Shown one piece after another: positions 5,032 to 47,402 of a DNA stretch of 64,000 nucleotides. The number at the start of each line of letters is the position of its first letter. Position 1 is the stretch's first letter. This DNA comes from an uncultured Chitinophagales bacterium (lineage in GTDB: Bacteria > Bacteroidota > Bacteroidia > Chitinophagales > CAZNGA01): the NCBI GenBank assembly GCA_964572485.1, contig CAZNGA010000003.1, positions 9,591-73,590 of the forward strand. Reading direction: 5' to 3'. Position numbers and translations under genes: made by a program. The notes beneath the pieces are model-generated. The model worked only from the letters and a program-made list of their open reading frames with translations. It was not told the origin of the DNA and did not search any database.

Positions 5032-5045
5032 GGAAATAGCACAAA

Positions 5046-23047: not shown

Positions 23048-26000
23048 TTATTTTGAAGCAGCTGCCCCAGCGAAGGGTGAGTTGCTGATAATTATTTTCT
23101 TCTGGAAAAGGACTGATTCACCTGAAAGAACAACATAATACAATCCTGATGGCAAACTGTTGCCAATAATAATGTCTTCCATGAAATTTTCACTGGTTAT
23201 TTTTACATTTTTGCTATACACTTCACGTCCCAGGAAGTCCAATATCGAGATCTTCATTTTGTTATCTTGTTGGCCCCAAATACTCACAAAGAACCTCCCC
23301 TCCACTACAGGATTAGGATACACTTTTACTTTCGTATAAGCGATCTTCAAAAAGGTTACTGAAACTATGTCAGAATAACTTGATTGCCCATCAATATCCA
23401 CTTGTAACAAGCGATAATATGATACTCCTTCGTGAGGATGTTCATCAGTAATACCATAATTTTGATTCGTGTAACTGTTTCCATATCCCTTTACTATAGT
23501 CAATGGATAAAAGCTATAACCATCCACACTCCTTTCTACCACAAAATGATCGTTGTTGATCTCAAAAGCGGTTGCCCAGGTCACATCCACCATCTCACCA
23601 TTTATTTCAGCATCAAAGCTTATCAATTCAATTGGAAGAGGAATACCGGTGCCGCCTGTGAATGCCAACACACCAGGGAAAGGTTCAGATATCCCCACCG
23701 CTGTATAGAATATATTTGCTGCATCATCTACTGCTTCATGGCTAGCCCATGTACTTCCATCCCAGATCTGTGAAGTCATTCCTGTCTCTGAACCAACTAT
23801 ATCAGCTGACACATAAGTATAGTTCACATTAAAGTTCATAGATAACAGGCCACTCCAGGTCATTGTCCAATACCTGGTAATATAATCAGCAGTACTCATA
23901 TTGGGATGCTTCCCATCCGTGATATTCACTGCAACACCATCACCGCCAAAGAAAGTTGCGGAATTCAGTTCAAAGGTAAATGGGGAGTAATTGGTTCCAT
24001 CTCCTACAGGAAATGTAAATGAACCTGTATCACTAAACTCTTTCACCATTGCTCCGCTGCCATCTGCCTGTACATAGCTGGATGAACTACCTCCTGTGGT
24101 CAGGCCATTATCCTTCATAGTAAGATTGTAATTTCCTAATACAATATCTCTTTCAATTAAAGTTAATTCAGTTGCTGATACATTGGAAGCTAATGGAAGA
24201 TCAGAACCTTGTTTATCCACCGTTATGTTATAATAAGTACCATCGTTTGGACCTTTTATTGCCTGTGAGTTATTACCATTATATTCAACGATATTTCCGG
24301 TAGCAGAAGCTACCAATTTTCCTGTGTTTAGCAGGTCTCTTTCAACGATCAATGAAGAGTTCACCTCATTGATCCAGAATGCATTCGCATCTTCTCCAAT
24401 AATATGCTCTTCAAAAACAATGTTTCCAAAATTTGTAATTGTGAAAGCACCCTTAAAAGTAAGGTCACTTTTTTTAATGATAAGGTATGCACCTGATGGT
24501 ATCGTCTTATTGCCATTAGTGATCCAAACACCATTATCATTCTGTATCCGTCCTATTCCATCTAATATTGAGCCTGACCCACTAAGAGTAAGCACATTAT
24601 CCCCTTTGATCTTTCCATCCACAATCAGGTCTCCCTGCACATCCATGGTCTTACTTTTTATATCAAGCTCTCCACCTGACATTATGATCAGGTTTAAGAT
24701 AGTAGTATTTGATTCCAGTTCTATATCATGATTAGCGCTGATCTTTACACTATTACCAGCCAAAGGGACACAATCGCAGTTCCATGTTTCGGGATCATCC
24801 CATTTACCTGATTTTATGCTTAAGATCGGAACATATATATTGATGCTTTGGTCAACACTTGCGGCTGCGCCACAACCATTGGAGCCGATCACACTCACTT
24901 CTCCAATTCCCGCTGATCCCCAATCTACTGTTATCTCATAGGTCCCTTGTCCGGCAGATATTGTCCCACCAGTAACTGTCCAGGTATAAGTATTCCCGGA
25001 GATATCTATAACATTATATATATCTCCTATAGAGTTTTCCGGTACATTGAAAGAGCCATAAATTATTGATGTTGCAATTGGATGAATACCCACAGCGAAA
25101 TCCACAGGAGTGGCACTCATACAGCTATTACTTTCTACTAAACGGACATTCCCTTCCATCCCTACAGCCCCCCAATCAATGGTTATACTATTTGTTCCCT
25201 GCCCGGAAATTATACTCCCTCCGGTGGCTGTCCATACATAACTATTACCGGGGGTATTTGTTACAGAATATATGCTTCCGCTAGTGTTCTTACATAAGCT
25301 ATCTGTTCCTGAAATAGTTGAAGTCGCTGGCCCGGAACAATTTGTAGTATCCCCTAAAGCAAATTGCCCTAAAATACTCATGCTTGTTCGGTAAGCAATA
25401 GGTGAAATAGCGATGCCATGATTACCGTTGGCTATCCATGGATCAGCGATCAATCCTCTGTAAAGAATTCTGGTTGAACCATCCATGGTAAATGAACTTA
25501 ATCCGGTGCTTGTGATTGCCATATCATATGTGGTACCTGCGAAAGAGTTGGCTTCGGTAAACTCCCAAAAACCTTCAGTAAATGTATTGTGTACTGTTTC
25601 GGCTCCATCAACAAGTGGGAATCCGTTAGTACCCGGATCGAATTCAATGAACTCTGCGATTATAGAACCTCCTGTCAATGCGCTGAAATTAAGTTTCACA
25701 TTTAATGCATAGTCATCGGTACCTACCGGGAATTCATAGGAAGAACCAGTTGTGTTTACCCATCTTTCAAATTGGCCTATAATTGTTCCGGCAGTGTGTA
25801 CCAAGCTCCCTTCATCTAGCAGACTTTCTCCTAATATCAATTTATTGGAGCCTGGATCTATATTACCCCTGATCATGGTAAGCGTATTTTCTACCGTATC
25901 AGATTGATTTAGTATTAACTTTCCTCCTGATTTATCAACAGTAAGATTATAAAAGCATTCTCCTGATATAGTCTCAAGGTTCTGATCTGTCGATCCGTTG

Positions 26001-26833
26001 AAAATAACGGTCCCTGTAGTTTCATTATTATAGGCCCTATTGATCCAATCCCCTGACAGCGAAAAAGTAAAAGTACCTAGATCGAAAATCCCACCATTTA
26101 TTGTAAAGTCACCGCTCACACTTAAATTAGCAAGAACAGTTTTAGTGCCGCTTGCTTCTACAATCAAGTGATAATAATTTCCAAGGGGGGTTTTAATATT
26201 TTGAGCAAGACTGCCATTGTATTTTACAGTATTGCCTGATGCGGAAGCATCAAGAATTCCTAACGGTAATAACGCACTGGCAACTGTTAATGAGCTATTG
26301 ACTTCATTTACCCACTTTGAAGTTCCATCTTCACCATGCAATGTATCACCAAGTGATACGATTCCATAATTATGAACAGTGATCCCACTTTTTATGGTTA
26401 TTGTTCCAAATGCTTTAGTGAGGTTCGCTGTGGATAGGATCGTTTTATCTCCTCCCTGAAACCATAGATCAGCTTCGTGAATAGTGCCATTACCATCAAT
26501 TGTGGTGTTGCTTCCATTCAATATGGTTGCCACACTTTTAAAACTCACGTGGTCACCATTAACCACATAGTTGCCATTGATTGTTAGCAATACTTTTCTA
26601 CTGAAAAGAATACCACCTGCATTAATTGTTAGATCATTAACAACAGTTGTATTTTGCATTCTCACCTGATGGCCTGCACCAATGATAATATCGTCCGTGG
26701 ACGTTGGGATACAACCACAATCCCAGGTATTTTTATTGTCCCAATTGCCACTGGTTATTGAAGTTATCGTAGCTGATTCAGCGACGAAGATCTGCAAAAA
26801 TAGAAATGCAGTAAGTAAATATACTTTCCTCAT
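23048..26833 (-). CDS. T9SS type-A CTD protein, tandem paralog A1 (two beta-helix-like modules + two Ig-like domains)
   Basis: 1261 aa with signal peptide MRKVYLLTAFLFLQIFVAESA.
- Module openers: SGNWDNKNTWDCGCIP (aa 28-43) and SGKWDDPETWNCDCVP (aa 675-690).
- Two Cys-bounded about 85-aa domains (aa about 499-668).
- Core: SYVQADGSG..FPVGD..YSPF..KHPN..ITRYW..DIVGSE..WDGSTW.
- LPIELISF...EINNDHFVVERS.DG...YYRL.QVD.DG.
- CTD: KVYPNPV...GLYYVVL...KKIIIS plus an 11-aa tail. Confidence 0.9.
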   Translation of the reverse strand: MRKVYLLTAFLFLQIFVAESATITSITSGNWDNKNTWDCGCIPTSTDDIIIGAGHQVRMQNTTVVNDLTINAGGILFSRKVLLTINGNYVVNGDHVSFKSVATILNGSNTTIDGNGTIHEADLWFQGGDKTILSTANLTKAFGTITIKSGITVHNYGIVSLGDTLHGEDGTSKWVNEVNSSLTVASALLPLGILDASASGNTVKYNGSLAQNIKTPLGNYYHLIVEASGTKTVLANLSVSGDFTINGGIFDLGTFTFSLSGDWINRAYNNETTGTVIFNGSTDQNLETISGECFYNLTVDKSGGKLILNQSDTVENTLTMIRGNIDPGSNKLILGESLLDEGSLVHTAGTIIGQFERWVNTTGSSYEFPVGTDDYALNVKLNFSALTGGSIIAEFIEFDPGTNGFPLVDGAETVHNTFTEGFWEFTEANSFAGTTYDMAITSTGLSSFTMDGSTRILYRGLIADPWIANGNHGIAISPIAYRTSMSILGQFALGDTTNCSGPATSTISGTDSLCKNTSGSIYSVTNTPGNSYVWTATGGSIISGQGTNSITIDWGAVGMEGNVRLVESNSCMSATPVDFAVGIHPIATSIIYGSFNVPENSIGDIYNVIDISGNTYTWTVTGGTISAGQGTYEITVDWGSAGIGEVSVIGSNGCGAAASVDQSINIYVPILSIKSGKWDDPETWNCDCVPLAGNSVKISANHDIELESNTTILNLIIMSGGELDIKSKTMDVQGDLIVDGKIKGDNVLTLSGSGSILDGIGRIQNDNGVWITNGNKTIPSGAYLIIKKSDLTFKGAFTITNFGNIVFEEHIIGEDANAFWINEVNSSLIVERDLLNTGKLVASATGNIVEYNGNNSQAIKGPNDGTYYNITVDKQGSDLPLASNVSATELTLIERDIVLGNYNLTMKDNGLTTGGSSSSYVQADGSGAMVKEFSDTGSFTFPVGDGTNYSPFTFELNSATFFGGDGVAVNITDGKHPNMSTADYITRYWTMTWSGLLSMNFNVNYTYVSADIVGSETGMTSQIWDGSTWASHEAVDDAANIFYTAVGISEPFPGVLAFTGGTGIPLPIELISFDAEINGEMVDVTWATAFEINNDHFVVERSVDGYSFYPLTIVKGYGNSYTNQNYGITDEHPHEGVSYYRLLQVDIDGQSSYSDIVSVTFLKIAYTKVKVYPNPVVEGRFFVSIWGQQDNKMKISILDFLGREVYSKNVKITSENFMEDIIIGNSLPSGLYYVVLSGESVLFQKKIIISNSPFAGAAASK

Positions 26834-26872
26834 AAAATAGTAATTTTATTAAGCACATAGTTTTATCTATAT

Positions 26873-26965
26873 AGTAATTACGTATGATTACCCTTAAAAG
26901 ACATATTTATTTGATAGAGATGGCTTATTAGCGGATAAGTGATCTAAAAATGGTGTTGAATGGGC
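26873..26965. promoter_or_regulatory. three-box upstream module of A1 (degenerate box1, 21/39 spacing)
   Basis: TTACGTATG core ending at 26886, a 21-nt gap, TATTTGAT (26908-26915), a 39-nt gap, then GTTGAATGGGC (26955-26965). Confidence 0.45.
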
Positions 26966-27171
26966 TATTTTAACCGATTAATGAGGTAAAATCGGTGATT
27001 CACAGCTATATAGGTTTTCTGCTCAATTTCGCAGGGTAAGATCAGTGTCTTTTAACCTTAAGCTTAAAGAAGTCGCAAAGTTCATTGGTTTAATCAATAG
27101 GGGTCTATAATGAATCATATCTGGATGCTAAGGTACTTAATCGACTGTGGCAATTACATCAGTTATAAAAA

Positions 27172-27204
27172 CTCTTCCTTTTCTTCTTTCCTTCTTCTCT
27201 TTTT
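27172..27204. repeat. 33-nt pure polypyrimidine (CT) tract
   Basis: CTCTTCCTTTTCTTCTTTCCTTCTTCTCTTTTT, in the spacer just downstream of the A2 stop. Confidence 0.7.
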
Positions 27205-27257
27205 ATAGAAAAAGCCCCTCAAAAATGAGAACCTTTAATAATTAGGATCAAAATTTA

Positions 27258-30200
27258 TTATTTATTCCCAACAAAGATATCCTCGCTATACGAATTCGTT
27301 AAGATGACCTTTTGTTTGAAGATATAATTATCACTGCTTGAAATGACGAAGTAAACTCCTGAAGGTAATTTACTTCCTACATCAATACCAGTCAATATAT
27401 TATCACTTTCCACCAACATCATTCTAGTAAACACTTCTCTACCTAAATGGTCAAGCAGTATGACTAACATCTCTTTATTTTGAAATCCCAAGATACCGAG
27501 ATTAAGTTTACCATCTACAACAGGATTAGGATACACTTTAACCATAGGTACAGGGATATCTGATAAAGTAACAGCAACAACATCTGAATAGCTTGCCCTT
27601 CCATCTTTATCAACCTGCATCAATCGATAATAAGAGGTGCCTTGAAGCGGATGGTTATCTGTCAAAGCATAATTGCTAGGCACATAACTATTACCAACTC
27701 CAAAAACCATACCTATACCGTAAAAATCCATACCATCTTGACTTCGTTCTACAATAAAATAGTCATTATTGATCTCAGTAGCCGTAGTCCAGGCAACATC
27801 CACAGCTTGTTCATTTACTTCTGCGTCAAAAGTTAAGAGTTCAATGGGAAGAGGGCTGCCACTTCCTCCAGTAAATTGCAATATACCTGGGAATGGAGCT
27901 GAGATACCACCGGAAGTTTGAAAAGTATTCGTCACTTCATCCACTACATCGTGAATTGTCCATGAACTTCCATCCCAGACATATGTGATCATCCCTATTT
28001 CAGTGCCAACAATATCTCCTGACACATACGTATAACTTACATCAAAATTCATAGATAATAAGCCACTCCAGGTCATCGTCCAATACCGCGAAATATAGTC
28101 AGCGGAAGTTATGGTAGGGTGTTTTGCATCAATTACCTTTATAGCTACCCCATCGCCACCAAAGAAAGTGGCTGAGTTTAAGTCAAAGGTAAATGGAGAA
28201 TAATTAGTTATATCTCCAATGGGGAAGGTAAATACTCCAGTATCGCTAAATTCTTTTATTACATAACCACTGCCATCAGCTTCAATATAAGATAAAGAGC
28301 TGCCTCCGGTTATATTCCCCTGATCCTTTATAGTAAGGTTGTTATTATCAAGAACCAAATTCCCACTTGAGAGATTCAATTCTGTTGTATTGATATCAGA
28401 GGTTAAAGTAAGATCATTGCCGGGTTTATCTACACTCAACCTATAATAAGTGTTCGCATTGGGTTGTTTAACACTTTGAGTTCCGCTACCTGAATAATTG
28501 ACCAAATTTCCTGAAGCTGAAGCGATTAGTTTTCCAGTAAGTAGAAATGCTCCTTTGATGTTTACAGAACTATTGACCTCATTGATCCATATTGAGTTCA
28601 CATTGGTACCTATAATATCTCCATATAGAAGGATGTTACCATAATTGGTAATCGTATATGCATCTTTAATAATGATCATTTTCCTTGTCTTTGTCAGATA
28701 AGCAGATGATAGGATCGTTTTATCGCCATCGGTAATTTCCAAATTACCTTTATTGGTTATTTTTCCAATACCATCAATTATTGTACCTGAACCGCTTAAT
28801 GTAAGGGTTGCTGAGCCTGAATATTCCCCATCAACTGTAAGATCCCCTTTCACATCCATGGTTTTACCTTCATCATCGATCTCTCCTCCGGCAACAATTT
28901 CCAGATGATTAACAACTGTTGCTGCTTTCAATTTAATTTTATGCTTTTTCATTACACGTACATTGCTACTTGCCGATGGCACACACTTGCAATTCCAAGT
29001 GGATACATCATTCCATTCTCCCGATTTGACGCTATTTATCGGTACATAAATATTGACATTTAAGCTTATTGTATCGGCCGTTCCGCAACCATTTGAGCCA
29101 TCAACTATTACCTTACCGGTTCCTGCTGCACCCCAGTCAACTGTAATACTATTGCTACCTTGCCCAGATACAATTGTGCCTAGCATCACGGTCCAATCAT
29201 ATGTGTAACCTGTAATTCCAGAGATACTGTAAACTTCTCCAGTCGTATTCTCTGTTACATTTTCTTTCCCTGTTATGGAAGATGTGGTAAATGGATGAAT
29301 ACTTACGGGCAAATTGACGGGTGAGCCATTTGTACAATTATTTGATTCTACCACCTCCACTTCGCCTATCATACCAATACCACCCCAGTCCACGGTAATG
29401 TTGTTGGTACCCTGGCCTGAAACAATTGTTCCGCCGGATACTGTCCATGCATAAGTAGACCCTAATGTATTGGTAACAGAGTAAGGTATACCCAGGGAAT
29501 TCTTACAAGTACTATCGATACCTGTAATCATTGAAGTTGACGGGCCTGCACAATTTGAAGTGTCCCCAAATGTCAGCTGCCCAATAGTTGTTAAACCGAT
29601 TCGAGATACAAATGGTGCGAGTACTGTCCCATGGGACCCATTAGCACTCCAAGGATCACTAGAAGAAGGCCTGAACAAGACCTTGGTAGACGAGTCAATT
29701 GGGAAACTGGAAAATCCAAAGCCACCCAAAGCCACATTATAATTATTACCTACAAAAGAATTCATTGGAGTCACTTCCCAATATCCTTCACTAAAAGTAT
29801 TGTTGAGCGTATCTGTTCCATCTACAACAGGTAGCCCATTATTGCCGGGAGCAAATTCGATGAATTCTACAATTATTGATCCGGATGACATTGAAGAAAA
29901 TCCTATTGACGTTTCTCTGGAATCGGTAGAGGTACCAATTGGGAATTGATAGGTAACCAAAGGACTTTTAATCCATCTCTCAAATTTCCCAATAATATTT
30001 CCTGATATATGAATCAAAGTTCCATCATTAATTGTATCTGTCCCAAGGACCAATTTCCCTGATCCCACATCGATATCACCACTATTCATAGTTAATAAAT
30101 TCTTAACCGTATCAGTGCAGCCCAGGGAGACTTTACCACTCAATTTCTCTACTCTTAGGTTATAATAGCTTTGTCCAAATAAGCATTTGACCACCTGATC

Positions 30201-31181
30201 TGAATTACCATCAAATACTACGGTACCTGATGCCTCATTAAATGAACCGGTATTGACCCAATTGCCTCGAAGGTATATGGTATTACTATTTGAATAAAAT
30301 GGCCCACTATTTAGGATCAGGTCGCCATTTATAAAAATATTTGCCATAAGATTTTTGATCCCACTACTTTCCAGGATAAGGTTATAGTAATTATTGCCTA
30401 ACGCTGTCTTAATATTCTGCGATACAGCACCATAATATCTGATATTATTGCCAGTGGCACTTGCATTCAACTTTCCGGTGGCAAGCAAAATGCCACGTAT
30501 ATTCAAAGTACTATTACTAGCATTGATCCAAATTGCAGAAGCACTTTGCCCAATGATATCACCTCCAACAGTGATTATTCCTTTATTAGTAACGGTTACA
30601 CCAGGATAAATAGTTATAGTACCAAATGCTTTAGTTAGATTTGAAGAAGCAACGATGGTCTTATTTCCATTCATTATTGCAAGGTCAGCTTCATGAATAG
30701 TGCCAATGCCTCCAATACTAGTGTTGATCCCTGTTAAAGCAGTAACGATACCTCCCATGCTTACATGATCGCCATCAACTATATAGTCGCCTGTAATGGT
30801 GATCTGACGTTTATTATTATATAACAGTGATCCGGATTTTATGAGAAGATCATTGACAACGGTGTTGGTTCCCAATGATACTTTATGGCCGCTCGAGATC
30901 ACCACATTGTCTGAAGAAGTAGGGATGCAACCACAATCCCAGGTTGTTTTAGCTGTCCACAATCCACCTTGCACTGAAACGATAGTGGCCTGCCCGTAAG
31001 AAAATAAGGTGAGGAGGGAAAAAAACCCCGTTAGAAAATAGACCTTGCTATTACGAATAATCGGTAACCCTGCTTTTTTTAATTGGTCATTAGTCATATT
31101 CCAAGCATTGCCACTCTCTAACGGGGAAACAACGGGCATAAAAAAAATTGCTCTTTTAATGAGGTAAAGTATTTCTTTCAT
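27258..31181 (-). CDS. T9SS type-A CTD protein, tandem paralog A2
   Basis: 1307-aa ORF with the same architecture as A1 (WTAKTTWDCGCIP and SGEWNDVSTWNCKCVP openers, two Ig-like domains, core module, LPIELLTF domain, CTD). The hydrophobic signal segment VYFLTGFFSLLTLFSYGQA starts about 45 aa into the ORF, so the true start may be the ATG at 31097. Confidence 0.85.
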   Translation of the reverse strand: MKEILYLIKRAIFFMPVVSPLESGNAWNMTNDQLKKAGLPIIRNSKVYFLTGFFSLLTLFSYGQATIVSVQGGLWTAKTTWDCGCIPTSSDNVVISSGHKVSLGTNTVVNDLLIKSGSLLYNNKRQITITGDYIVDGDHVSMGGIVTALTGINTSIGGIGTIHEADLAIMNGNKTIVASSNLTKAFGTITIYPGVTVTNKGIITVGGDIIGQSASAIWINASNSTLNIRGILLATGKLNASATGNNIRYYGAVSQNIKTALGNNYYNLILESSGIKNLMANIFINGDLILNSGPFYSNSNTIYLRGNWVNTGSFNEASGTVVFDGNSDQVVKCLFGQSYYNLRVEKLSGKVSLGCTDTVKNLLTMNSGDIDVGSGKLVLGTDTINDGTLIHISGNIIGKFERWIKSPLVTYQFPIGTSTDSRETSIGFSSMSSGSIIVEFIEFAPGNNGLPVVDGTDTLNNTFSEGYWEVTPMNSFVGNNYNVALGGFGFSSFPIDSSTKVLFRPSSSDPWSANGSHGTVLAPFVSRIGLTTIGQLTFGDTSNCAGPSTSMITGIDSTCKNSLGIPYSVTNTLGSTYAWTVSGGTIVSGQGTNNITVDWGGIGMIGEVEVVESNNCTNGSPVNLPVSIHPFTTSSITGKENVTENTTGEVYSISGITGYTYDWTVMLGTIVSGQGSNSITVDWGAAGTGKVIVDGSNGCGTADTISLNVNIYVPINSVKSGEWNDVSTWNCKCVPSASSNVRVMKKHKIKLKAATVVNHLEIVAGGEIDDEGKTMDVKGDLTVDGEYSGSATLTLSGSGTIIDGIGKITNKGNLEITDGDKTILSSAYLTKTRKMIIIKDAYTITNYGNILLYGDIIGTNVNSIWINEVNSSVNIKGAFLLTGKLIASASGNLVNYSGSGTQSVKQPNANTYYRLSVDKPGNDLTLTSDINTTELNLSSGNLVLDNNNLTIKDQGNITGGSSLSYIEADGSGYVIKEFSDTGVFTFPIGDITNYSPFTFDLNSATFFGGDGVAIKVIDAKHPTITSADYISRYWTMTWSGLLSMNFDVSYTYVSGDIVGTEIGMITYVWDGSSWTIHDVVDEVTNTFQTSGGISAPFPGILQFTGGSGSPLPIELLTFDAEVNEQAVDVAWTTATEINNDYFIVERSQDGMDFYGIGMVFGVGNSYVPSNYALTDNHPLQGTSYYRLMQVDKDGRASYSDVVAVTLSDIPVPMVKVYPNPVVDGKLNLGILGFQNKEMLVILLDHLGREVFTRMMLVESDNILTGIDVGSKLPSGVYFVISSSDNYIFKQKVILTNSYSEDIFVGNK

Positions 31182-31225
31182 AAATATATTTTTAAGTAGA
31201 TTCAGTTTTCCAATTTGTTCTATTT

Positions 31226-31318
31226 CTTACATACGTAAGGGACCAGTAACAATTCGATTTAATTTGACCAAACCTATGTACATCAAGTTAAGTGAACTTT
31301 ATTTAGGGATGAATGGAC
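31226..31318. promoter_or_regulatory. three-box upstream module of A2 (21/39 spacing)
   Basis: CTTACATACGTAAG (31226-31239), a 21-nt gap, AATTTGAC (31261-31268), a 39-nt gap, then GATGAATGGAC (31308-31318). Confidence 0.55.
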
Positions 31319-31564
31319 AAAAAAGTAAGATTAAACGGCCGAAACCTATACGATTGGCTATACCAAGACTTTACAATCCAACCTGGATATTCTGCTATAT
31401 CTATTAAGTCGATTCAAAGGGCTTAGATCAGCCACAATAAGTACCATTTACATAGGTAAGGATGATCTAGTTTTCCAATGATCTATCGATGCATGGATAC
31501 AATATAAGATCAGGTGTGACTTGGGAAATAAGTTGTGTTAGAGGGTAGTCATTGAAAGGAACAT

Positions 31565-35374: not shown

Positions 35375-35397
35375 AGTTTTCCCATTTAATACTATTT

Positions 35398-35469
35398 CTT
35401 ACATACGCGAACATTCCGGATAAATCCGAGTAAATTTGACGGAAGTGGTGGTAATTTCGATGAATGGAC
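35398..35469. promoter_or_regulatory. three-box upstream module of A3 (21/18 spacing)
   Basis: CTTACATACGCGAA (35398-35411, right half degenerate), a 21-nt gap, AATTTGAC (35433-35440), an 18-nt gap, then GATGAATGGAC (35459-35469). TAAATTTG at 35431-35438 matches TAnnTTTG on the plus strand. Confidence 0.55.
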
Positions 35470-35767
35470 CTATTCCTATGGTTAATAGCCTATAAGGTTG
35501 GATAAGGCACTTAAGCTCAATGACTGCAAGGTATTAAGGCAGTACATCATCACTTCAATACTCTTATACATAATAGGTAAGCACAGGGGAAGGGCCTACT
35601 AATGATCACTTCGGATCTGATACACAAGATAAATATCGCGGACTAAATTAGAAGTAGGTGTATTTGTAATATTTGAAACTTAGGGTAAGTACAATACAAA
35701 AAAATGCCCACATCGATTCACCTTCAGGTAGGATGCAGACATTTAAAGTTTTAATATGCTTTGTAGG

Positions 35768-38296: not shown

Positions 38297-38447
38297 AATT
38301 GTTGCTTTGTTATTATAGTTTACGTTTTGACCAAATCCTTGTTTCGAATTGGCCTCCTGACTTATTAGTCGGTTTACTATCGCTGATAAATGGTCGTTAT
38401 TCATAAATAAATGGTTGGTATTATATAGTTACTATACTATCAACTCT

Positions 38448-38519
38448 CTTACTTACGTAAGTTTGTCTGCATAATCTGAGAAATTTTGACCGATGTAATG
38501 GAATATTCGACGAATGGAC
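38448..38519. promoter_or_regulatory. three-box upstream module of B1 (21/18 spacing)
   Basis: CTTACTTACGTAAG (38448-38461, containing the perfect 12-bp palindrome ACTTACGTAAGT), a 21-nt gap, ATTTTGAC (38483-38490), an 18-nt gap, then GACGAATGGAC (38509-38519). Confidence 0.6.
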
Positions 38520-38658
38520 CTATTATGGTGTTGAATAACTTTGTAGAATAGATAAGCTGCCTAATAGACAATAGAACTTTGAGTATGCAAATACATTTAT
38601 AGGGTCAGGAACCATTGGGGTATATTATCAAGGGGTAAAGTTACTGCCAACAATACAA

Positions 38659-38916
38659 CTACTGCTTAGCATAGGATGAAAAGGAAGAGGAGCTGCTTAC
38701 AACCACAATCTTTTGTTTATATAGCTGTTGATCGCTGGCTCCAATAACGAAATAGATACCAGGGTTTAAAGTATTGCCAATATCCTTGAATTTACAATTC
38801 ACCACTCTTTGGAATGGGGAGGCCGGGATCCGGGATATTGAAAATTGCCCATAAAATTCAACGTGCATTAAGGTTCCTGTATTTCTTGTCAGAGGATTAG
38901 CTACTGTGAATAGCAT
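38659..38916 (-). pseudogene. CTD-only relic of a family paralog
   Basis: The 85-aa ORF holds only a degenerate T9SS CTD: ANPLTRNTGTLMHVEF...NPGIYFVIGASDQQLYKQKIVVVSSSSSFSSYAKQ. The Ser-rich ...AKQ tail matches B1. No signal peptide or passenger domain. Confidence 0.6.
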
Positions 38917-39024
38917 GTGAAGAAGGTGGAAATTTCTTAAAGATCTCAGATAAGCTTAAATGTACCCTCTCTTTCTTTTTTTTCTCTGCCTGAAAGTACT
39001 TGATAAATTTGTAAGTCTTCATAT

Positions 39025-39639
39025 TCAAAATAGTTGTATTTCCCAAAATAACCAGCCAAACATTAGAAACCTCAATATACGCACGCTGGCAAATGCCATA
39101 TATCTATTTAATGGATAATCCATAGAACCTGATAAGATGCTGATAATAGAAAAAGGGATGGGTGTAAATGCTGCTATAGCGATATACATGCCTCCCCAGG
39201 ACAAGATATTCTTCTTGTATTTATTACTGAATCCGTTCAAGTACTTTGCTAAATATTTAATTTGGCATAACTTTTTTCCAAGCAACAATGAGACGATCCC
39301 ACCAAAATAGGAAAGAAATGCTAAAAGGAACAAAAAGATCACAGGGTGAGAACATTGCAAGGACCAAAGGATAAAAAAGTCTTGAGGTAATATGCCAAGA
39401 AAGGACTCTGAAATAAAGAAAACACCAAATACGATTGGAGGGAGCACTGCCAAATGAATGCTGGTTTCAAAATTAGTAGTTGAAAAAAAGTATTTAGAGG
39501 TTGCAAGAGCTCCTACTATCAAAATAATATATAGGAACCCATGAAGTATATTTCGTGATAAGATCTTGTACTCGATATTATTTAATGGAAGGCAAATGGC
39601 TCTTATCTTTGTAATTGAATTCTTGCTAAATTGCTTCAT
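39025..39639 (-). CDS. small polytopic membrane protein, YqaA/DedA (VTT-domain)-like
   Basis: 204 aa, about 5 TM segments. The LPQDFF..., YFGG....LG and AAFTPIPFSIISILSG patterns resemble the YqaA/DedA family. It starts 33 nt downstream of the paralog C stop on the same strand. Confidence 0.6.
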   Translation of the reverse strand: MKQFSKNSITKIRAICLPLNNIEYKILSRNILHGFLYIILIVGALATSKYFFSTTNFETSIHLAVLPPIVFGVFFISESFLGILPQDFFILWSLQCSHPVIFLFLLAFLSYFGGIVSLLLGKKLCQIKYLAKYLNGFSNKYKKNILSWGGMYIAIAAFTPIPFSIISILSGSMDYPLNRYMAFASVRILRFLMFGWLFWEIQLF

Positions 39640-39672
39640 GAGTGTGTATCTTGAGATTTTACAGAGATAAGA

Positions 39673-41730
39673 TCAATTACGAGCATAATTACTTGATCCA
39701 TTGCCACCTGATATGACCAACTTCTGCTGGCATATTTCGTTCTTACTGCTCGCGACTATCAGATATACCCCCGGAGCAAGGTTGTTCATTAGATCGATCC
39801 CTGTGAGTACGCCATTACTTTCAGTGATCATCACTTTAGAATATACCTGCTGTCCCGTATGGTTATAAAGAACCACCAACACTTCTTCATTAGCTTTCTT
39901 ATCGCTTATTTCCAGAGTTAATTCCTGTCCAGTTAATAGAGGATTAGGATAGATCTTCATGGTTGAAGTTGTATTAGTGATCTGTACAGCCACAGGATCA
40001 AAATATTCAAACCTCTGATCGTAGTCGGTTTGTTTGAGTCTATAGTAGCTGGTACCAGATAGTGGCGTATTGTCAATATAAGAATAGTTGTTTTCTGTGT
40101 ATGATGTCCCCATTCCTTCCACTTCCGCAATTACTTCAAAGTTGATCCCATCATTAGACCTTTCTACAGTATAATAGTCATTATTGATCTCAACTGACGA
40201 GGTCCAATTGATCTCAACTGATCTTCCAACAACTTCTGCACCCATATCCAACAATTCGATAGGGAGTGCCATTCCATTCCCCGCAGAGAAGTCATGGTTT
40301 GAAGGTATCTCTGATATACCACTGCTACTGGTAAGTGTATTGGTGACTGTATTTACATTATTGTATTGAGTCCAGGCAACCCCATTCCATCTGGCTGTAT
40401 TCAGGGTGGCCTCAGTGCCTGTAACGTCTACTTCATTATAGATATAGCTCACATCGTAATCAATAGAACCAATACCACTTGCATCTATGGTCCAATATCT
40501 TGTGATCAGATCACCCGGATCTAAGTTGGGATGGAGACCATCGGTTATATTACAAGTTATAGTAGCTGTACCCCCTGAACTGCTATTTTTTGTAAAGGTA
40601 AATGGTGAATATTCGTTCACATCTCCTACTAAAAAGTCAATTGAGCTATTGTTGTTAAATAGCTTTACCATTTTCCCACCATTCGAAGAGGTAACATCTA
40701 CATAACTATTGATACTGCCACCAGCTGTAGTACCTGATGTTGCAATGATCAGGTCATCTGCGCCAACTTTGATCACCCCATCAGACATGGTAAGTGTACC
40801 ATTTACTGTGACATCTCCCTCTAAGGTTAATTGTGGAGAAGTACCATAGCTATTGTTTATTGTAACATTCTCGTATGTAAAACCATCTGTGCCTGCTCCC
40901 TCATCTTCTCCGATCACTTGAGCTATAGAGGCATCAAATGTGATCGTTGAATTATCCTGCATATCAAATAATCCGTAGTTATTAGGAGTTGCCTGTCGTA
41001 TAACATCACCGGCAAGATTGATGCGTGTGTCATCCAGCACTTTAAAAACAACTCTGCTTTGAGCACTCGCAGTTATATAGATATCTCCAGACACATCTAA
41101 AAATGAGTTATCCTCAAATTTGCCATACACATCTTGTGAGCCCCCGCTGTAATCCATGGTGAGGTCTCCATCTACAATAAGTTGGCCATCATCTTTTACT
41201 GACAGTGATATTCTCTTTGTCCCGCCATCACTGTCAAGGGTCATATCCCCATTTACTCTCATTATTGAATTGTCATTTACCTTTATTTTTATCACATCTG
41301 AACCGCCATTTCTATAAGCCAGGAAATCACCTTGTACGGTAAGAATACCGCCACCCATTCCACCGGAATTTTCCTCCAGGTGCAAATGTGCTTCCCTCGA
41401 GCCGCCATTTGCATCTAAAAGCATATCTCCGGCTACGGTTAATGAATAGCCATCTTCAATTTCTAATTTACCATCATTGCTTCCTGAACCAAGAAGTTGA
41501 ACATATGCACAAGCCATATTTGCGTTATTAACTTCGATCTCATATCCCTGGATATAAGCGCTATCGCCTGCAACTGGGTAAGCGCCGGCTGCAGCCCCTC
41601 CAAAACCGGTTGTTGACCAGTTATTGTTGTCATCCCAGATACCCCCACTAATAGAATAGTAAATAGTAGCACCTGCGAAATTCATCGCTGCAAAAAAAGT
41701 AAGTCCGATTAATAAAATAAAGCGTTTCAT
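39673..41730 (-). CDS. T9SS type-A CTD protein, tandem paralog C
   Basis: The ORF extends to 41814. The ATG at 41730 gives MKRFILLIGLTFFAAMNFAGA. Opener SGGIWDDNNNWSTTGFGGAAAGAYPVAGD. Core SYVDV..FLVGD..YSPF..LHPN..ITRYW. LPIELLDM domain. CTD KIYPNPL...GVYLIV. Confidence 0.85.
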   Translation of the reverse strand: MKRFILLIGLTFFAAMNFAGATIYYSISGGIWDDNNNWSTTGFGGAAAGAYPVAGDSAYIQGYEIEVNNANMACAYVQLLGSGSNDGKLEIEDGYSLTVAGDMLLDANGGSREAHLHLEENSGGMGGGILTVQGDFLAYRNGGSDVIKIKVNDNSIMRVNGDMTLDSDGGTKRISLSVKDDGQLIVDGDLTMDYSGGSQDVYGKFEDNSFLDVSGDIYITASAQSRVVFKVLDDTRINLAGDVIRQATPNNYGLFDMQDNSTITFDASIAQVIGEDEGAGTDGFTYENVTINNSYGTSPQLTLEGDVTVNGTLTMSDGVIKVGADDLIIATSGTTAGGSINSYVDVTSSNGGKMVKLFNNNSSIDFLVGDVNEYSPFTFTKNSSSGGTATITCNITDGLHPNLDPGDLITRYWTIDASGIGSIDYDVSYIYNEVDVTGTEATLNTARWNGVAWTQYNNVNTVTNTLTSSSGISEIPSNHDFSAGNGMALPIELLDMGAEVVGRSVEINWTSSVEINNDYYTVERSNDGINFEVIAEVEGMGTSYTENNYSYIDNTPLSGTSYYRLKQTDYDQRFEYFDPVAVQITNTTSTMKIYPNPLLTGQELTLEISDKKANEEVLVVLYNHTGQQVYSKVMITESNGVLTGIDLMNNLAPGVYLIVASSKNEICQQKLVISGGNGSSNYARN

Positions 41731-41776
41731 GATTAATGATTTAGTTGTGTTCAAATCGTCATTTTTTCTCATAATA

Positions 41777-41993: not shown

Positions 41994-42034
41994 GAAGAAA
42001 GGAAGAGGAAGAAAGGAAAAGGAAAGAGAAAAGG
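41994..42034. repeat. 41-nt pure polypurine (GA) tract
   Basis: GAAGAAAGGAAGAGGAAGAAAGGAAAAGGAAAGAGAAAAGG, in the spacer between B2 and C. Confidence 0.7.
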
Positions 42035-42111
42035 TCCGATCCATATAGAACCGGGGCCATAATACAACTAAATCAACATCAAAATATTATTCAATTTTTC
42101 CCTATGTCATC

Positions 42112-44604
42112 TTATTTTATTATATCGCCAGAGATGATCAATCTCTGTTGATAGATGCTTTTATTACTGCTACCAATCACAAAATATACACCTGGTATCA
42201 ACTTATTATTTAAATCTATGGCAGTAGTAATTTCATCACCTTGAATCAATAGCACCTTCGAATAGACCTCTCTCCCATATTGATCTACAAGCACTACCAT
42301 CACTTCTTCATCAGGGGTAAATCCTTGCAGAATAACCTGCAATGACTGGCTTGGCAACACAGGATTTGGGTATAACTTAATAGTAGGTTTATCAACACTT
42401 ACAAAGTGTACAGCTATCGGTGCAAAATATTCAAATTGATGATCCACATCTGTTTGCTTCAATCTATAGTAGGAAGTCCCTGTAATTGGCTCAGAGTCAA
42501 CATATTTATAATTAGTGCTTTGATAGGTAGTCCCCTGGCCATTAATTGTTGATATAACTTCATAATCAAAACCATCATTCGATCTTTCAATTGTAAAATA
42601 ATCATTATTGATTTCAACAGCTGTACTCCAATATAATACAACCCTGTCTGTCTCTACATCTGCCCTAAAACTCAGCAATTCTATAGGTAAAGCACCTCCA
42701 CTGCCGCCTGTGAAATCATGGTTACTGGGAATAGTAGTGATCCCTATAGAATTGGAGAGTGTATTGATCGCAGGATTTACAGCATTATATGCACTCCATG
42801 AACTACCATTCCATTTGGCAGCTTTCAGGTTGGTTTCTGTGCCTACAATATCTTCGTCTAAATACACTGCCTTGTAACCATATTTAATAGCTGAAAAGCC
42901 CCCACTATTCATTCTCCAAAACCTTGTAATGTGGTCCCCTTCTGCCATATTTGCATGTTTTGCATCAGTCACCTTTATTGAAATATTATCACCCCCACCA
43001 AAAGAAGTTCCCCCTTGGAGCTTAAACCAAAATGGAGAAAATTCATCATTATCGCCAACCGGAAAGTCAAATGGCGTAGTGATCCCATTAAAATTCTTGG
43101 TCATTACTCCTTCATTATCTGCCTGAACATAACTGGAAGCACCTCCGTTAGATATTGTGGCATCAACATCCATTGTCAGATCATTAGCCCCCAGGACAAT
43201 ATCTCCACTAGAAAGGTTAAGGGTTCTGGTCACTGTAATATCAGCACTCAATGAAACATCACCACTACTATTATCGACGGTAAGATCATAAAATTCTTCA
43301 CTATTGCCATTTATTGCTTGAGGAGATGAGCCATCAAATGTCACTTCACCATTTCTCTCAATAAATGTACCATTGTCTGTCCAGTTTCCTGCGAGATCTA
43401 TAGTATAATCACTTCCATTCCCTACATCCAATGCAGCATTGGCAGTAATCAACAGATCTCCATTTATATCTACATTATCAGTAAGTGTTTTGGTAGCCCC
43501 TCCTGATAGGGTTACGTTACCATAGGATTCATTATTTGAGGGATCAGGGACATTCTGGGCACTGGTAGCAGCAAAATTTACAGTACTGTTGACATGGATA
43601 CTATGAGATGCACTAGTTGAAGTTTGTAGCATTCCACCTGTACCATCTGTGGTGGTAGTAGAATATGTTGTAGTGCCAGCCATCTCGAAGAACTTTCCAT
43701 TTGCCAATTCAATACTGTAACCGCCAGAATTCAGCTGGCCGGTCATTACACGAATATCATCTAATACTGTATTCGTCTCATCTGATTGAGAGATATCTGC
43801 ATCTAAAGTTACTCCTGCAGTATTATTGATCCTCACCTCTCCATAGGTCCATTCATTTGTAACAGCACCCCCATAATTGATCATTGAGAACACTTGAGCT
43901 GATGTGCCATTGAAGTTTATAGTTGTAGTCTCTTCACAATCAAGGTCCCCATAATTACCTGATGCACTTCTGTCAAAATTACCTGCCAGATTCATTAATC
44001 CATTGTCATTCATATTGATCTTTAAACTTCCTTTCTCAGCACCTTCATATAATACATCCCCCAGTATTGTGCATACTCCATCATCTTCTAATTTAAGTTC
44101 TGCTTCCTTATCACCATTTGCCCAGAGGGATACATTGCCGGTTATGGTTAATGATCCATCTTCTTTTACTTTTACCTTTGCTTCATCTTGATCATCATAA
44201 GCCATAAGGTTCAAATTGGAGCCAATTGACATTGTTCCAGGGAATCCACTCGAACCGGATATCTCAATTTCAACTTTATTTTTATTACTTTGGGTACTTA
44301 ATAAAGTACCATATATAACTGTCAGGTCTCCATTATCCTCAATGAGCAATTTAGAGTCATCCCCTGATCCGGAGCGCATATAGATACTATCACACTGCTC
44401 AATAGAATTTACGGTTACTTCTTCATCTTCAATAACCACAATATCTCCAACGCCGGGTACAGAAGCTCCGGATGAACCACCTGAAGTAGTTGACCAGGTA
44501 CTTGTATTATCCCAATCACCTGAATTTACCGAGTAGCGAGTCCCTGCCTGCAAACAAAAGTAGGTCATCATTATCAGACATACAGTAGTAAATAAAGTTT
44601 TCAT
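42112..44604 (-). CDS. T9SS type-A CTD protein, tandem paralog B2
   Basis: 830 aa with signal peptide MKTLFTTVCLIMMTYFCLQA. Opener SGDWDNTSTWSTTSGGSSGASVPGVGD. Core YVQADNEG..FPVGD..FSPF..KHAN..ITRFW. LPIELLSF domain. CTD KLYPNPV...GVYFVIG. Confidence 0.9.
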   Translation of the reverse strand: MKTLFTTVCLIMMTYFCLQAGTRYSVNSGDWDNTSTWSTTSGGSSGASVPGVGDIVVIEDEEVTVNSIEQCDSIYMRSGSGDDSKLLIEDNGDLTVIYGTLLSTQSNKNKVEIEISGSSGFPGTMSIGSNLNLMAYDDQDEAKVKVKEDGSLTITGNVSLWANGDKEAELKLEDDGVCTILGDVLYEGAEKGSLKINMNDNGLMNLAGNFDRSASGNYGDLDCEETTTINFNGTSAQVFSMINYGGAVTNEWTYGEVRINNTAGVTLDADISQSDETNTVLDDIRVMTGQLNSGGYSIELANGKFFEMAGTTTYSTTTTDGTGGMLQTSTSASHSIHVNSTVNFAATSAQNVPDPSNNESYGNVTLSGGATKTLTDNVDINGDLLITANAALDVGNGSDYTIDLAGNWTDNGTFIERNGEVTFDGSSPQAINGNSEEFYDLTVDNSSGDVSLSADITVTRTLNLSSGDIVLGANDLTMDVDATISNGGASSYVQADNEGVMTKNFNGITTPFDFPVGDNDEFSPFWFKLQGGTSFGGGDNISIKVTDAKHANMAEGDHITRFWRMNSGGFSAIKYGYKAVYLDEDIVGTETNLKAAKWNGSSWSAYNAVNPAINTLSNSIGITTIPSNHDFTGGSGGALPIELLSFRADVETDRVVLYWSTAVEINNDYFTIERSNDGFDYEVISTINGQGTTYQSTNYKYVDSEPITGTSYYRLKQTDVDHQFEYFAPIAVHFVSVDKPTIKLYPNPVLPSQSLQVILQGFTPDEEVMVVLVDQYGREVYSKVLLIQGDEITTAIDLNNKLIPGVYFVIGSSNKSIYQQRLIISGDIIK

Positions 44605-44651
44605 TACACTTAATTTTAATTATAGAATTATTGTTGAATTTCCTTTCATTA

Positions 44652-44850: not shown

Positions 44851-44891
44851 AACAATTACAACGAAGTATAAAAGTTAAATAACTATATCTC

Positions 44892-47402
44892 TTAATTTGA
44901 AGAAGAATTACTGGAGCTGGAAATAATCAACCTTTTTTTATGTATCGTTCTTTCATCGCTTCCAATAACAAAGTAAAGTCCGGGTGGAATTTTACCATAA
45001 AGGTCAATAGCTGTAAGCACCTGGCTACTCTCCATCATTATCACTTTTGAAAAAACCTCTCTGCCAAATTGATCCATCAGCAAGACAACCACTTCTTTAT
45101 ATGGTTCAAATCCTTCTAAGACCACATTCAAAGATTGGTTGGGCAGCACAGGGTTTGGGTACAATTCAATGGATGTATTATTTGAATATTCTAATACCAC
45201 TGTTACCGGTGCAAAATATTCGAAATGATGATCATAATCAGCTTGCTTCAGCCTGTAATATGAAGTCCCTTGGTAGGGTGAAACATCTACATATTTGTAG
45301 TCAGTACTTTGATATGTGGTTCCTTGCCCTTCAATAGTAACCAAGATCTCGAAATCAATACCATCATTAGAGCGCTCTATAGTAAAATAGTCATTATTGA
45401 TCTCAACAGCAGTTGACCAGGTGAGTAGCACTTCAGAGCCAACAACTTCAGCATTAAATCCTAATAACTCTATTGGCAGTATTGCACCTGCACCACCTCC
45501 GGTAAATCCATCGTTGGCAGGAATTTCACTGATCCCTGTAGTATTGGACAGGGTATTTGTTGAGGCAGAAACCGAATTGTATGATGTCCAGGCACTTCCA
45601 TCCCATCTTATCCCTAAGAGGTTGCTCTCGGAGCCTACAATATCTGCATCCACATACACTGATTTATAGGTAAAGTTAATTGCCGAGAAACCACCACTGT
45701 TTACATTCCATACTCTGGTGATATGAGCAGTACCTGGGTTAATCTGAACATGCTTGGAGTCGATTATATTTACAGAGATAAAATCACTTCCACCAAATGT
45801 GGTTCCACCGATCAACTCTACCCAAAAAGGAGAATATTCATTATTATCCCCTACCGGATAATTGAATGGATTATTGAGTGCATCCATATTTTTGATCATT
45901 ACACCTGCATTATCTGCTTGCACATAACTTGAAGCACTTTCATTGGACGATGTGGCATTGACGTCCATAGTCATATCATTTGACCCTAATACGATATCCC
46001 CAAGAGTAAGATCGAGGGTACGAGAAACTGTGATATCTGTATTCAATGATACATCACCACTTGAATTATTGATGGTCAGGTCATAATAGGTTTCATTAAC
46101 GCCGTTGATTGTTTGAGCTGAAGATCCATCAAATGTTACTTTTCCATTTCGCTCATTATAGGTTCCATTATCTGTCCAGTTTCCTGCCAGATCTATATCA
46201 TAATCATTTCCGTTATCTGCATCCAGGGTAGAAGTTGCAGTAATCAAAAGGTCGCCATTCACATCAATATTATCTACAAGTGTTTTGGTAGCCCCACCTG
46301 ACATGGTTACATTACCATAGGGTTCACTATTTGAGGGATCAGGGACATTTTGCGCACTGGTGGCTGCAAAATTCACCATACTATTTACATGGATATCATG
46401 AGAGGCAGAAGTAGAGGTCTCCAACATCCCACCAGTAGCATCTGTGGTAGTGGTATAATAAGTTGTTGCACTTGCAATCTCAAAAACCTTTCCATTTCCC
46501 AGTTCTATACTATATCCTCCTGAGTTCATCTGACCGCTCAGGATACGAATATCATCCAAGACTGTATTATTAACATCTGATTGAGAGATATCTGCATCTA
46601 AAGTTACTCCTGCAGTATTATTGATCCGTACTTCCCCATATGTCCATACATCGGTAGCCGATCCACCGTAGTCAATCATCGAAAGAGTTTGTGCAGATGA
46701 GCCATTGTAATTTACGACAGTGTTCAATTCACAATCCAACTCCCCATAATTTCCAGAGGCACTCCTGTCAAAATTGCCTGCAATGTTCAATACTGCGTTG
46801 TCCTTAACTCTCAATCTTGGCTTACCTAGCTCAGCCCCCTCAAATATAATATCTCCCACTACAATAGCTGTAGCATCATTTTCTACATTAAATTCAGCTT
46901 TTTTATCGCCATCGGTCCATAAAAACACATCCCCGCTTACGGTCAATGAACCATCATCAATTACATTAACTTCTGCATCATCTTCTCCATCAAAACCCCT
47001 TATGATCAAATCTCCTCCAATAGACATCGTCCCCGGAGTTCCGCTTGTGCCAAATATCTCAAGAGTTGCTTTATTACCATTATTTTCTGTTGTGAGAAAC
47101 ACACCATTCGTAACGGTAAGATCACCATCATCATCAACTAATAGTTTACTATCATTACCAGAGCCGGAAATAATATAAATACTATCACATTGTTCCACAG
47201 AATTTACAGTTACTGTATATTCGTCTTCAATTATTACCACATCACCACTACCGGGAACAGAAGCCCCTGAAGATCCTCCGGAACTTGTTGCCCAGGTGTT
47301 CGTATTATCCCAATCACCATTGTTGACGGAGTAACGATTAGCTGCATCAACATTGTACTCTATAACACTGATGATGAATAGTGTTGTAAATAAATACTTC
47401 AT
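44892..47402 (-). CDS. T9SS type-A CTD protein, tandem paralog B3
   Basis: 836 aa with signal peptide MKYLFTTLFIISVIEYNVDA. Opener NGDWDNTNTWATSSGGSSGASVPGSGD. An 88-aa stretch is identical to B1. LPIELLGF domain. CTD ELYPNPV...GLYFVIG. Confidence 0.9.
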   Translation of the reverse strand: MKYLFTTLFIISVIEYNVDAANRYSVNNGDWDNTNTWATSSGGSSGASVPGSGDVVIIEDEYTVTVNSVEQCDSIYIISGSGNDSKLLVDDDGDLTVTNGVFLTTENNGNKATLEIFGTSGTPGTMSIGGDLIIRGFDGEDDAEVNVIDDGSLTVSGDVFLWTDGDKKAEFNVENDATAIVVGDIIFEGAELGKPRLRVKDNAVLNIAGNFDRSASGNYGELDCELNTVVNYNGSSAQTLSMIDYGGSATDVWTYGEVRINNTAGVTLDADISQSDVNNTVLDDIRILSGQMNSGGYSIELGNGKVFEIASATTYYTTTTDATGGMLETSTSASHDIHVNSMVNFAATSAQNVPDPSNSEPYGNVTMSGGATKTLVDNIDVNGDLLITATSTLDADNGNDYDIDLAGNWTDNGTYNERNGKVTFDGSSAQTINGVNETYYDLTINNSSGDVSLNTDITVSRTLDLTLGDIVLGSNDMTMDVNATSSNESASSYVQADNAGVMIKNMDALNNPFNYPVGDNNEYSPFWVELIGGTTFGGSDFISVNIIDSKHVQINPGTAHITRVWNVNSGGFSAINFTYKSVYVDADIVGSESNLLGIRWDGSAWTSYNSVSASTNTLSNTTGISEIPANDGFTGGGAGAILPIELLGFNAEVVGSEVLLTWSTAVEINNDYFTIERSNDGIDFEILVTIEGQGTTYQSTDYKYVDVSPYQGTSYYRLKQADYDHHFEYFAPVTVVLEYSNNTSIELYPNPVLPNQSLNVVLEGFEPYKEVVVLLMDQFGREVFSKVIMMESSQVLTAIDLYGKIPPGLYFVIGSDERTIHKKRLIISSSSNSSSN

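Follow-up and report, generated by a model that had tools for sequence, protein, structure and literature searches.

What do seven related genes of no named family, filling 24 kb of an environmental Bacteroidota genome in tandem, encode, and does their number mark a variable cell surface? The genes lie between positions 23048 and 47402 of a 64,000-nt stretch (hereafter the window) of contig CAZNGA010000003.1 from an uncultured Chitinophagales bacterium. A preliminary description, made from the letters of the window, had read them as beta-helix-like type IX secretion system (T9SS) cargo, forming a variable surface coat or adhesin system rather than serving ordinary metabolism. Our analysis suggests that the seven genes probably encode surface-anchored, adhesin- or fibre-like T9SS cargo, and the best-supported placement is as a new unnamed family within the well-known multi-domain surface proteins of the T9SS.

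Seven paralogs built from a recurring unit

The open reading frame (ORF) listing and BLASTP agree on seven intact, co-oriented tandem paralogs, all on the minus strand and at the coordinates first proposed for them. Each encodes one or two copies of a common unit, an opener followed by a solenoid and a core, and ends in a module named LPIEL and a C-terminal sorting domain (CTD):

A1, 23048-26833, minus strand: 1261 aa; signal peptide; first unit with opener at aa ~29, solenoid and core' at aa 346-491; two PKD_6 domains at aa ~504-670; second unit with opener at aa ~676, solenoid and core at aa 920-1058; LPIEL module from aa 1067; CTD at aa 1171-1249
A2, 27258-31181, minus strand: 1307-aa ORF with the two-unit architecture of A1
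A3, 31565-35374, minus strand: 1269 aa; the most diverged A type
B1, 35768-38296, minus strand: 842 aa from the signal-peptide ATG; one unit, LPIEL module and CTD; the ORF extends to 38404
C, 39673-41730, minus strand: 685 aa from the signal-peptide ATG; a TTG-initiated ORF reaches 41814
B2, 42112-44604, minus strand: 830 aa
B3, 44892-47402, minus strand: 836 aa; modelled layout of signal peptide 1-21, opener 22-60, solenoid 61-490, core 491-642, LPIEL 643-742 and seven-strand CTD 743-836

The signal-peptide ATGs at 38296 (B1) and 41730 (C) are sensible starts, preferred over the longer upstream extensions of these ORFs, and because the signal peptide of A2 begins ~45 aa into its ORF, the true start of A2 may be M29 (about 31097). 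All seven proteins carry a Sec signal peptide, with a hydrophobic N-terminus and an A-x-A-like cleavage site read directly from the translations. At the other end, the CTD model TIGR04183 scores above its 23-bit cut-off in six of the seven; the B3 domain, at 18.2 bits, aligns with the other CTDs and is modelled as a seven-strand sandwich. The claim that every gene has its own signal peptide and type-A CTD therefore holds in 7/7.

BLASTP identities define three types. A1 and A2 are 53% identical, with A3 at 43-45% to both, while B1 and B3 share 67% and B2 is 58-65% identical to either. Across types, identity reaches 37-42% over the last ~410 aa for A versus B and 39-43% over the last ~470 aa of C for C versus B, and the solenoids are ~25% identical between A, B and C. 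Upstream spacers, described as 250-420 bp for every gene, measure 254-424 bp for six genes, but B1 departs from this range with 620-728 bp and a gene relic inside. Hairpins resembling terminators follow A1, B2 and B3, and the genes of the array appear to be transcribed separately.

The common unit consists of a G8-like opener, a predicted beta-solenoid with three strands per coil and a putative beta-sandwich core of 135-150 aa. B and C types contain one such unit and A types two, with two PKD_6 domains in between, for ten units in total over the seven genes; in C the solenoid is shorter and divergent, and core, LPIEL module and CTD follow. The A types are internal duplications, with two openers each by motif search and two cores each by a locally iterated hidden Markov model (HMM; E 1e-25 to 1e-48). 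Their PKD_6 domains (PF19408), which the preliminary description had overlooked, number two per A type and score above the gathering threshold (E 1e-14 to 5e-27); B and C types have none.

Library searches of the seven proteins against Pfam and NCBIfam at E<=0.1 returned the CTD, a partial G8 domain and PKD_6, and nothing beyond these: neither an enzyme nor a named family was obtained for the passenger, PF13229 (Beta_helix) matched none of the seven, and the GG and PbH1 models gave no match. The G8 domain (PF10162) is matched in the A types only, over profile positions 1 to 49-57 of 124, so that no copy shows the full 124-position match. Scores are 29.9 bits for A1, 24.7 for A2 and 16.5 for A3 against a cut-off of 22.9, which two of the three pass, and the matched segment is the opener motif G.W....W....(V/I)P..(G/S)D..(V/I).I. 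The resemblance of the opener to G8, suggested at the outset, is thus borne out for the A types but not for B and C, which give no G8 match. The core had been reported as an unnamed domain of ~115 aa; it is real and unnamed, although 135-150 aa long, and is absent from Pfam, NCBIfam and the sequences of the Protein Data Bank (PDB). The LPIEL module, also real and in all seven copies, is likewise absent from PDB sequences and matched by no Pfam or NCBIfam model. PDB sequence searches with single proteins, a core profile and a core+LPIEL profile found no match.

Structures were predicted with confidence. AlphaFold2 modelled B3 with a predicted local distance difference test score (pLDDT) of 89.4 and a predicted template modelling score (pTM) of 0.71, and aa 1-700 of A1 with a pLDDT of 92.0 and pTM of 0.72. 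Their secondary structure comprises three short strands per coil of ~25 aa over B3 61-490 and A1 22-290, in agreement with the beta-solenoid passenger proposed earlier. The core (B3 491-642) is all-beta in the model, and the LPIEL module, with seven strands at B3 645-737, looks Fn3/Ig-like in its predicted fold. Foldseek, run on whole models only against PDB and BFVD, returned mostly strings of Ig/Fn3 domains at low template modelling (TM) scores. For A1, the top PDB fold matches were fragments of GhpA, followed by the surface glycan-binding protein SGBP-B, SorCS2, the insulin receptor and the adhesin SraP, and the single match to a 'parallel beta-helix repeat' was weak (TM 0.16). GhpA is a T9SS-secreted grappling-hook protein of Aureispira with a stem of Ig-like repeats (bioRxiv 10.1101/2024.01.29.577165). 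Against BFVD, the B3 model best matched small proteins encoded by phages, whose annotations read Fn3-like or 'Secretion system C-terminal sorting domain' and which look similar to the LPIEL + CTD cassette; A0A516LU18 (E 1e-10, TMt 0.40) is one example. Overall, profile and structure searches put the passenger in no characterised family, as first supposed, and a literature search found no paper connecting the T9SS with the G8 domain.

Distribution of the core, the LPIEL module and gene arrays

In word-indexed searches B3 had 111 homologs and the N-terminal half of the A types had 27, every one of them labelled 'hypothetical' or 'T9SS type A sorting domain-containing protein'. Their sources are Roseivirga, Fulvivirgaceae, Haliscomenobacter and Ferruginibacter, Bacteroidota metagenome-assembled genomes (MAGs), an Ignavibacteriae MAG and a few other phyla, and the Fulvivirgaceae protein P0013 carries the full A architecture. 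One homolog has a weak, below-cut-off match to PATR (passenger-associated transport repeat). Before the core, P0068 matches PF13229 and both P0071 and P0088 match a fuller G8, which supports the reading of the solenoid as a right-handed beta-helix by homology. P0088, which lacks a T9SS CTD, has the core flanked by G8 and DUF6701; the solenoid-core unit is therefore not confined to T9SS cargo.

A core profile built from 33 sequences and searched against 1.84 billion cluster representatives matched 8,629 at E<=1e-3, 4,045 at E<=1e-10 and 264 at E<=1e-30. Highest among them rank giant proteins, 2,000-7,600 aa long and holding as many as 14 copies of the core, in which Pfam shows only the CTD (Por_Secre_tail), PKD_6, a partial G8, SprB or PATR; two core-bearing proteins of ~3,700 aa are otherwise blank in Pfam. 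The opener-solenoid-core unit may thus be a widespread building block of T9SS cargo, of which other bacteria string up to 14 per protein. For the LPIEL module, a scan of species-representative genomes gave at least 585 confirmed loci, the best 80 of which entered an HMM census. In this census LPIEL is much commoner than the core, and in 95 of its 102 occurrences 70-98 aa (median 88) separate its end from that of the ORF; LPIEL therefore directly precedes the CTD.

Separate tandem family genes occur at two of these 80 loci (L001 and L061), and elsewhere the family is represented by single genes or a fused long ORF. The array is unusual, then, although the family itself is not. The best genome-scan match is 44% identical and the best metagenome-scan match 32%, and the only near-identical sequence is a second contig from the same population, held by the Joint Genome Institute (JGI; contig L081, sample 3300002231). 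It is 99.9% identical over window positions 26861-41691; the differences are five substitutions, one N and eight insertions of a single base. The insertions, which split B1 and C in the JGI gene calls, are most likely sequencing errors and not real frameshifts. The array has therefore been assembled twice, possibly from the same community.

Candidate regulators, spacers and exchange between copies

The array is bordered by genes for LytTR proteins, and several of its spacers contain a common motif:

Lyt1, 47657-48019, minus strand: stand-alone LytTR protein of 120 aa, directly upstream of B3; PF04397 E 2e-23
Lyt2, 48156-48524, minus strand: stand-alone LytTR protein of 122 aa; PF04397 E 1e-19
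Lyt3, 49213-49557, minus strand: stand-alone LytTR protein of 114 aa
Receiver-LytTR gene, 19651-20430: response regulator gene
Upstream motif CTTACnnnnG(T/A)AAG, 47519-47532, minus strand (example); other copies at 31226, 31447, 38448, 41777, 41917, 44701 and 50161

The adjacent LytTR regulator genes noticed at the outset are thus present, as three stand-alone genes and one receiver-LytTR gene. Lyt1-Lyt3 are paralogs at 49-54% identity, and PF04397 spans nearly all of each protein (E 1e-19 to 2e-23). Beside the three genes there is no convincing same-strand ORF of at least 30 aa for a membrane inhibitor, and 8 kb separate them from the only ORF of membrane-like character (39025-39639). In L001, the closest genome locus, two core-bearing family genes and a short opener-solenoid-CTD gene are followed by two LytTR genes orthologous to Lyt1 and Lyt2: lytB is 65% identical to Lyt1 and lytA 54% identical to Lyt2, and the family proteins of the locus are 33-40% identical to those here. 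The linkage of LytTR and family genes therefore predates this genome. As regulators of the array, the stand-alone LytTR proteins encoded beside it are the leading candidates, and it is their adjacency from which we infer such control.

A shared upstream operator had also been proposed. It is only partly borne out: allowing at most one mismatch, 1.5 copies of the motif CTTACnnnnGTAAG would be expected and nine occur, all but one of them upstream of locus genes. The enrichment is modest, and the motif, being absent from L001, has no cross-species support. An alternative definition of the motif, ACGTAWGTAAGA, was not enriched (13 matches versus 7.9 expected) and gave nothing significant in L001. 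An alignment can be made of the spacers upstream of A1, A2, A3 and B1, which is what duplication of promoters along with their genes would lead one to expect. In L001, the spacers upstream of the two family genes (1509-1904 and 3915-4419 of that locus) are near-duplicates of each other; there, too, genes were evidently copied along with their promoters. Short tandem tracts rich in purine/pyrimidine, with units such as GAAGAAAGGAAAAG, occur at 27175-27202 and 41994-42034, in the spacers upstream of A1 and C. A sigma-70 promoter scan was uninformative, with 79 matches against 75.5 expected; Bacteroidota promoters fall outside the models of the scan.

Exchange between copies and loss of a copy have both left traces:

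Gene-conversion tract in B1, 36714-36977, minus strand: 264 nt identical to B3 45832-46095, covering the solenoid end and core start
Gene-conversion tract in B3, 45832-46095, minus strand: counterpart of the B1 tract
CTD relic, 38662-38805, minus strand: the last ~45 aa of a family CTD, in ORF 38659-38916
204-aa gene, 39025-39639, minus strand: unrelated to the family; breaks up the array and adjoins the CTD relic

Around the perfect 264-nt stretch B1 and B3 are otherwise 55-75% identical, and the longest identical stretch of any other gene pair is 54 nt at most, which confirms the inter-copy recombination claimed for the family. A CTD-only relic, also claimed at the outset, is likewise present; it lies between the 204-aa gene and B1 and matches B2 by blastx (E 6e-7, 46% identity); the array therefore once had at least eight copies. 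The 204-aa protein matches no Pfam family; judged by eye from its hydrophobic stretches, it looks like a membrane protein with several passes. Arrival of its gene, which is also present in the second contig, may have destroyed the eighth family copy. A further short ORF upstream of the LytTR genes was considered as another relic and rejected:

165-aa protein, 49590-50087, minus strand: signal peptide, ~60 aa and type-A CTD; upstream motif at 50161-50174

Its CTD is 23-30% identical to those of the family, no better than that of a nearby cupredoxin gene.

The 64-kb window holds no recombinase or invertase, and no slippage-prone repeats, simple-sequence tracts or long homopolymers were found. 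The only candidate inverton is a pair of 15-nt inverted repeats (41737-41751 and 42061-42075), 93% complementary and 309 nt apart, which brackets nearly the whole spacer upstream of C in an inverton-like layout; no recombinase is near it and no alternative orientation was seen. The copies themselves are old (43-67% amino acid identity) and all intact, with no silent cassettes. The word 'variable' in the first account of this surface coat has no mechanistic support beyond the single conversion tract and the regulators: every copy is old and intact, and no recombinase, convincing inverton or slippage tract accompanies them.

The window is chromosomal, with dnaG, tsaD, tamB, bamA-like and maf genes, and neither tRNA genes nor Rfam families were found in it. 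No database protein exceeds 68% identity to TsaD, the nearest being from Saprospiraceae, Chitinophagaceae and Bacteroidota MAGs; the host is without a close sequenced relative. Twelve CTD-bearing genes in the window imply a T9SS in this organism. Flanking cargo includes, with type-A CTDs, an FG-GAP/ASPIC protein (20640-22949, plus strand), a sortilin/BNR-like protein (50243-52936, minus strand) and the cupredoxin (53861-54514, minus strand). A second kind of large T9SS cargo is represented by a 1694-aa protein (14308-19392, minus strand) with PKD and Ig_7 domains and a type-B T9SS signal (CHU_C), and its gene adjoins that of the receiver-LytTR response regulator at 19651-20430. Elsewhere, a GH16 glycoside hydrolase gene adjoins a PMT_2 family glycosyltransferase gene (4189-6536, plus strand), unconnected with the array.

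Probable surface cargo and its alternatives

Conservation patterns bear on what the passenger might do. In homolog sets of n=39 and n=33, the near-invariant residues are only Gly, Pro and Trp; the A-type N-terminal half has no invariant or near-invariant column over 27 homologs, and no acidic or basic residue of the solenoid is conserved across homologs. In the core, the polar residues D28, D57, H60, R72, D96 and E101 are invariant among the seven copies here but do not persist across the wider family. No catalytic signature was found. A binding or structural role, as adhesin, fibre or coat, appears most likely, because near-invariance is confined to Gly, Pro and Trp with no such column in the A-type N-terminal half, because no enzyme family matches and because the three types differ strongly in their solenoids. 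The best fold matches, weak as they are, point the same way, being Ig/Fn3 strings such as GhpA, SGBP-B and SraP. That the proteins are T9SS cargo and not metabolic enzymes, as initially argued, agrees with their signal peptides, their CTDs and the lack of any enzyme-family match.

Could the products nonetheless be secreted polysaccharide-degrading enzymes, with a catalytic solenoid, the core as a carbohydrate-binding module and paralogs for different glycans? Beta-solenoids are catalytic in pectate lyases, in GH28 enzymes and in the G8-bearing hyaluronidases CEMIP and TMEM2, and a similar function would be in keeping with the G8 match of the opener, the PF13229 match in P0068, the six invariant polar residues of the local cores and the presence of a GH16 gene in the window. 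We nevertheless consider it unlikely: no glycoside hydrolase, polysaccharide lyase or carbohydrate-binding family is matched at E<=0.1, no SusC/SusD or other polysaccharide-utilisation genes stand beside the array, the solenoids are only ~25% identical between types and lack a conserved charged residue, and the polar residues of the core are not retained in the wider family. A different question is whether the array is a contingency locus, in which one or a few copies are expressed at a time and gene conversion reshuffles them, letting the cell evade phages, grazers or competitors. Chlamydia Pmp proteins and the invertible surface loci of Bacteroides offer parallels, and seven paralogs with their own spacers and terminator-like hairpins, the tract common to B1 and B3, the persisting relic of a lost copy, three paralogous regulators next to the array and the inverted repeats upstream of C would suit such a locus. 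It is improbable, however, given old and intact copies without silent cassettes, a single recent conversion tract, the lack of a recombinase, invertase or slippage-prone repeat in the 64 kb, and two assemblies that agree at 99.9% identity and show no alternative orientation.

At the opposite extreme, the array might have no special function and be a neutral by-product of tandem duplication, with the LytTR genes unrelated to it. T9SS cargo genes are dense throughout the window, homologs elsewhere are nearly always single genes and the upstream motif is not conserved in L001, all of which such a by-product would accommodate. Yet all seven copies keep signal peptide, modules and CTD despite 33-57% amino acid divergence within the A and B types and more than that between types, which argues for purifying selection on each copy, and synteny of the LytTR pair and the family genes extends to L001, where the family proteins are ~35-40% identical to those here; a functionless array is therefore very improbable.

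Several observations weigh against the preferred reading of the genes as LytTR-associated, adhesin- or fibre-like surface cargo. G8-bearing beta-helix proteins include polysaccharide-degrading enzymes, and whole-model TM scores do not exceed 0.26 with PDB chains or 0.40 with viral protein predictions. The T9SS machinery genes por, spr and gld are absent from the 64-kb window. A chimeric assembly could, in principle, have produced the stretch that B1 and B3 have in common; the second contig also contains B1, but may derive from the same reads. With respect to regulation, the LytTR association is found in only 1 of 80 related loci, and the upstream motif, besides having no counterpart in L001, is palindromic, whereas characterised LytTR proteins bind direct repeats.

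If the genes do encode surface fibres, established T9SS biology suggests a course for their products. Sec would move each protein across the inner membrane, and the T9SS would recognise the seven-strand type-A CTD and move the protein across the outer membrane. The CTD would then be cleaved and the new C-terminus joined to a surface glycolipid, following the cleavage and glycan-anchoring pathway of T9SS cargo (PMC11969387). On the cell, the LPIEL module could serve as a cell-proximal stalk from which core and solenoid point outward, with the G8-like opener capping the far end; in the A types two such units would be stacked, joined by the two PKD-like Ig domains. The array itself presumably grew by tandem duplication of genes with their upstream regions and lost at least one copy, and the remaining copies may still swap sequence by gene conversion.

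Several known systems provide points of comparison. Like SprB, RemA and GhpA, the proteins described here have a Sec signal peptide, a long all-beta passenger, Ig/PKD-like repeats and, at the C-terminus, a T9SS sorting domain; some homologs of the family carry SprB repeats, and GhpA gave the top fold matches for A1, yet weak (TM <=0.26) and generic ones. Each of SprB and GhpA is one giant protein built largely from Ig-like repeats, and SprB uses a type-B CTD, in contrast to the beta-solenoid and unnamed core found here in seven genes for proteins of 685-1307 aa. The Pmp proteins of Chlamydia are similar in having beta-helical surface passengers and many diverged, partly tandem paralogs, but Pmp proteins and other autotransporters use the type V route and a C-terminal beta-barrel where the present family would use the T9SS and a cleaved CTD, and no sequence similarity is known. 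G8 proteins share the opener and differ in that only the N-terminal 40-45% of the profile is matched here. Finally, HdrRM and BrsRM of Streptococcus mutans pair a stand-alone LytTR protein with a membrane inhibitor. Their LytTR-only proteins resemble the 114-122-aa proteins of this locus in being without a receiver domain; here, however, no membrane-inhibitor gene stands beside the LytTR genes, and the candidate site is palindromic instead of consisting of direct repeats.

A specialist is unlikely to be surprised by the array as such, since paralogous T9SS adhesin-like genes are common. A bolder proposal, to which we give only an outside chance, is that G8-like cap, solenoid and core together with the LPIEL module form a large superfamily of building blocks for T9SS surface fibres, unnamed in the libraries searched and deployed here as a multi-gene repertoire that is LytTR-controlled, diversified by conversion and switched through a palindromic operator; if true, it would be an environmental Bacteroidota counterpart of the adhesin-variation loci of pathogens. 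The locus offers a compact setting in which to ask whether an environmental member of the Bacteroidota regulates its surface repertoire, and does so via stand-alone LytTR proteins. More broadly, T9SS cargo makes up much of the Bacteroidota cell surface, and large parts of it are unannotated. The fixed place of the LPIEL module beside the CTD hints that it helps to present or anchor cargo. The core alone marks ~8,600 protein clusters, and models for the core and LPIEL would improve the annotation of thousands of proteins.

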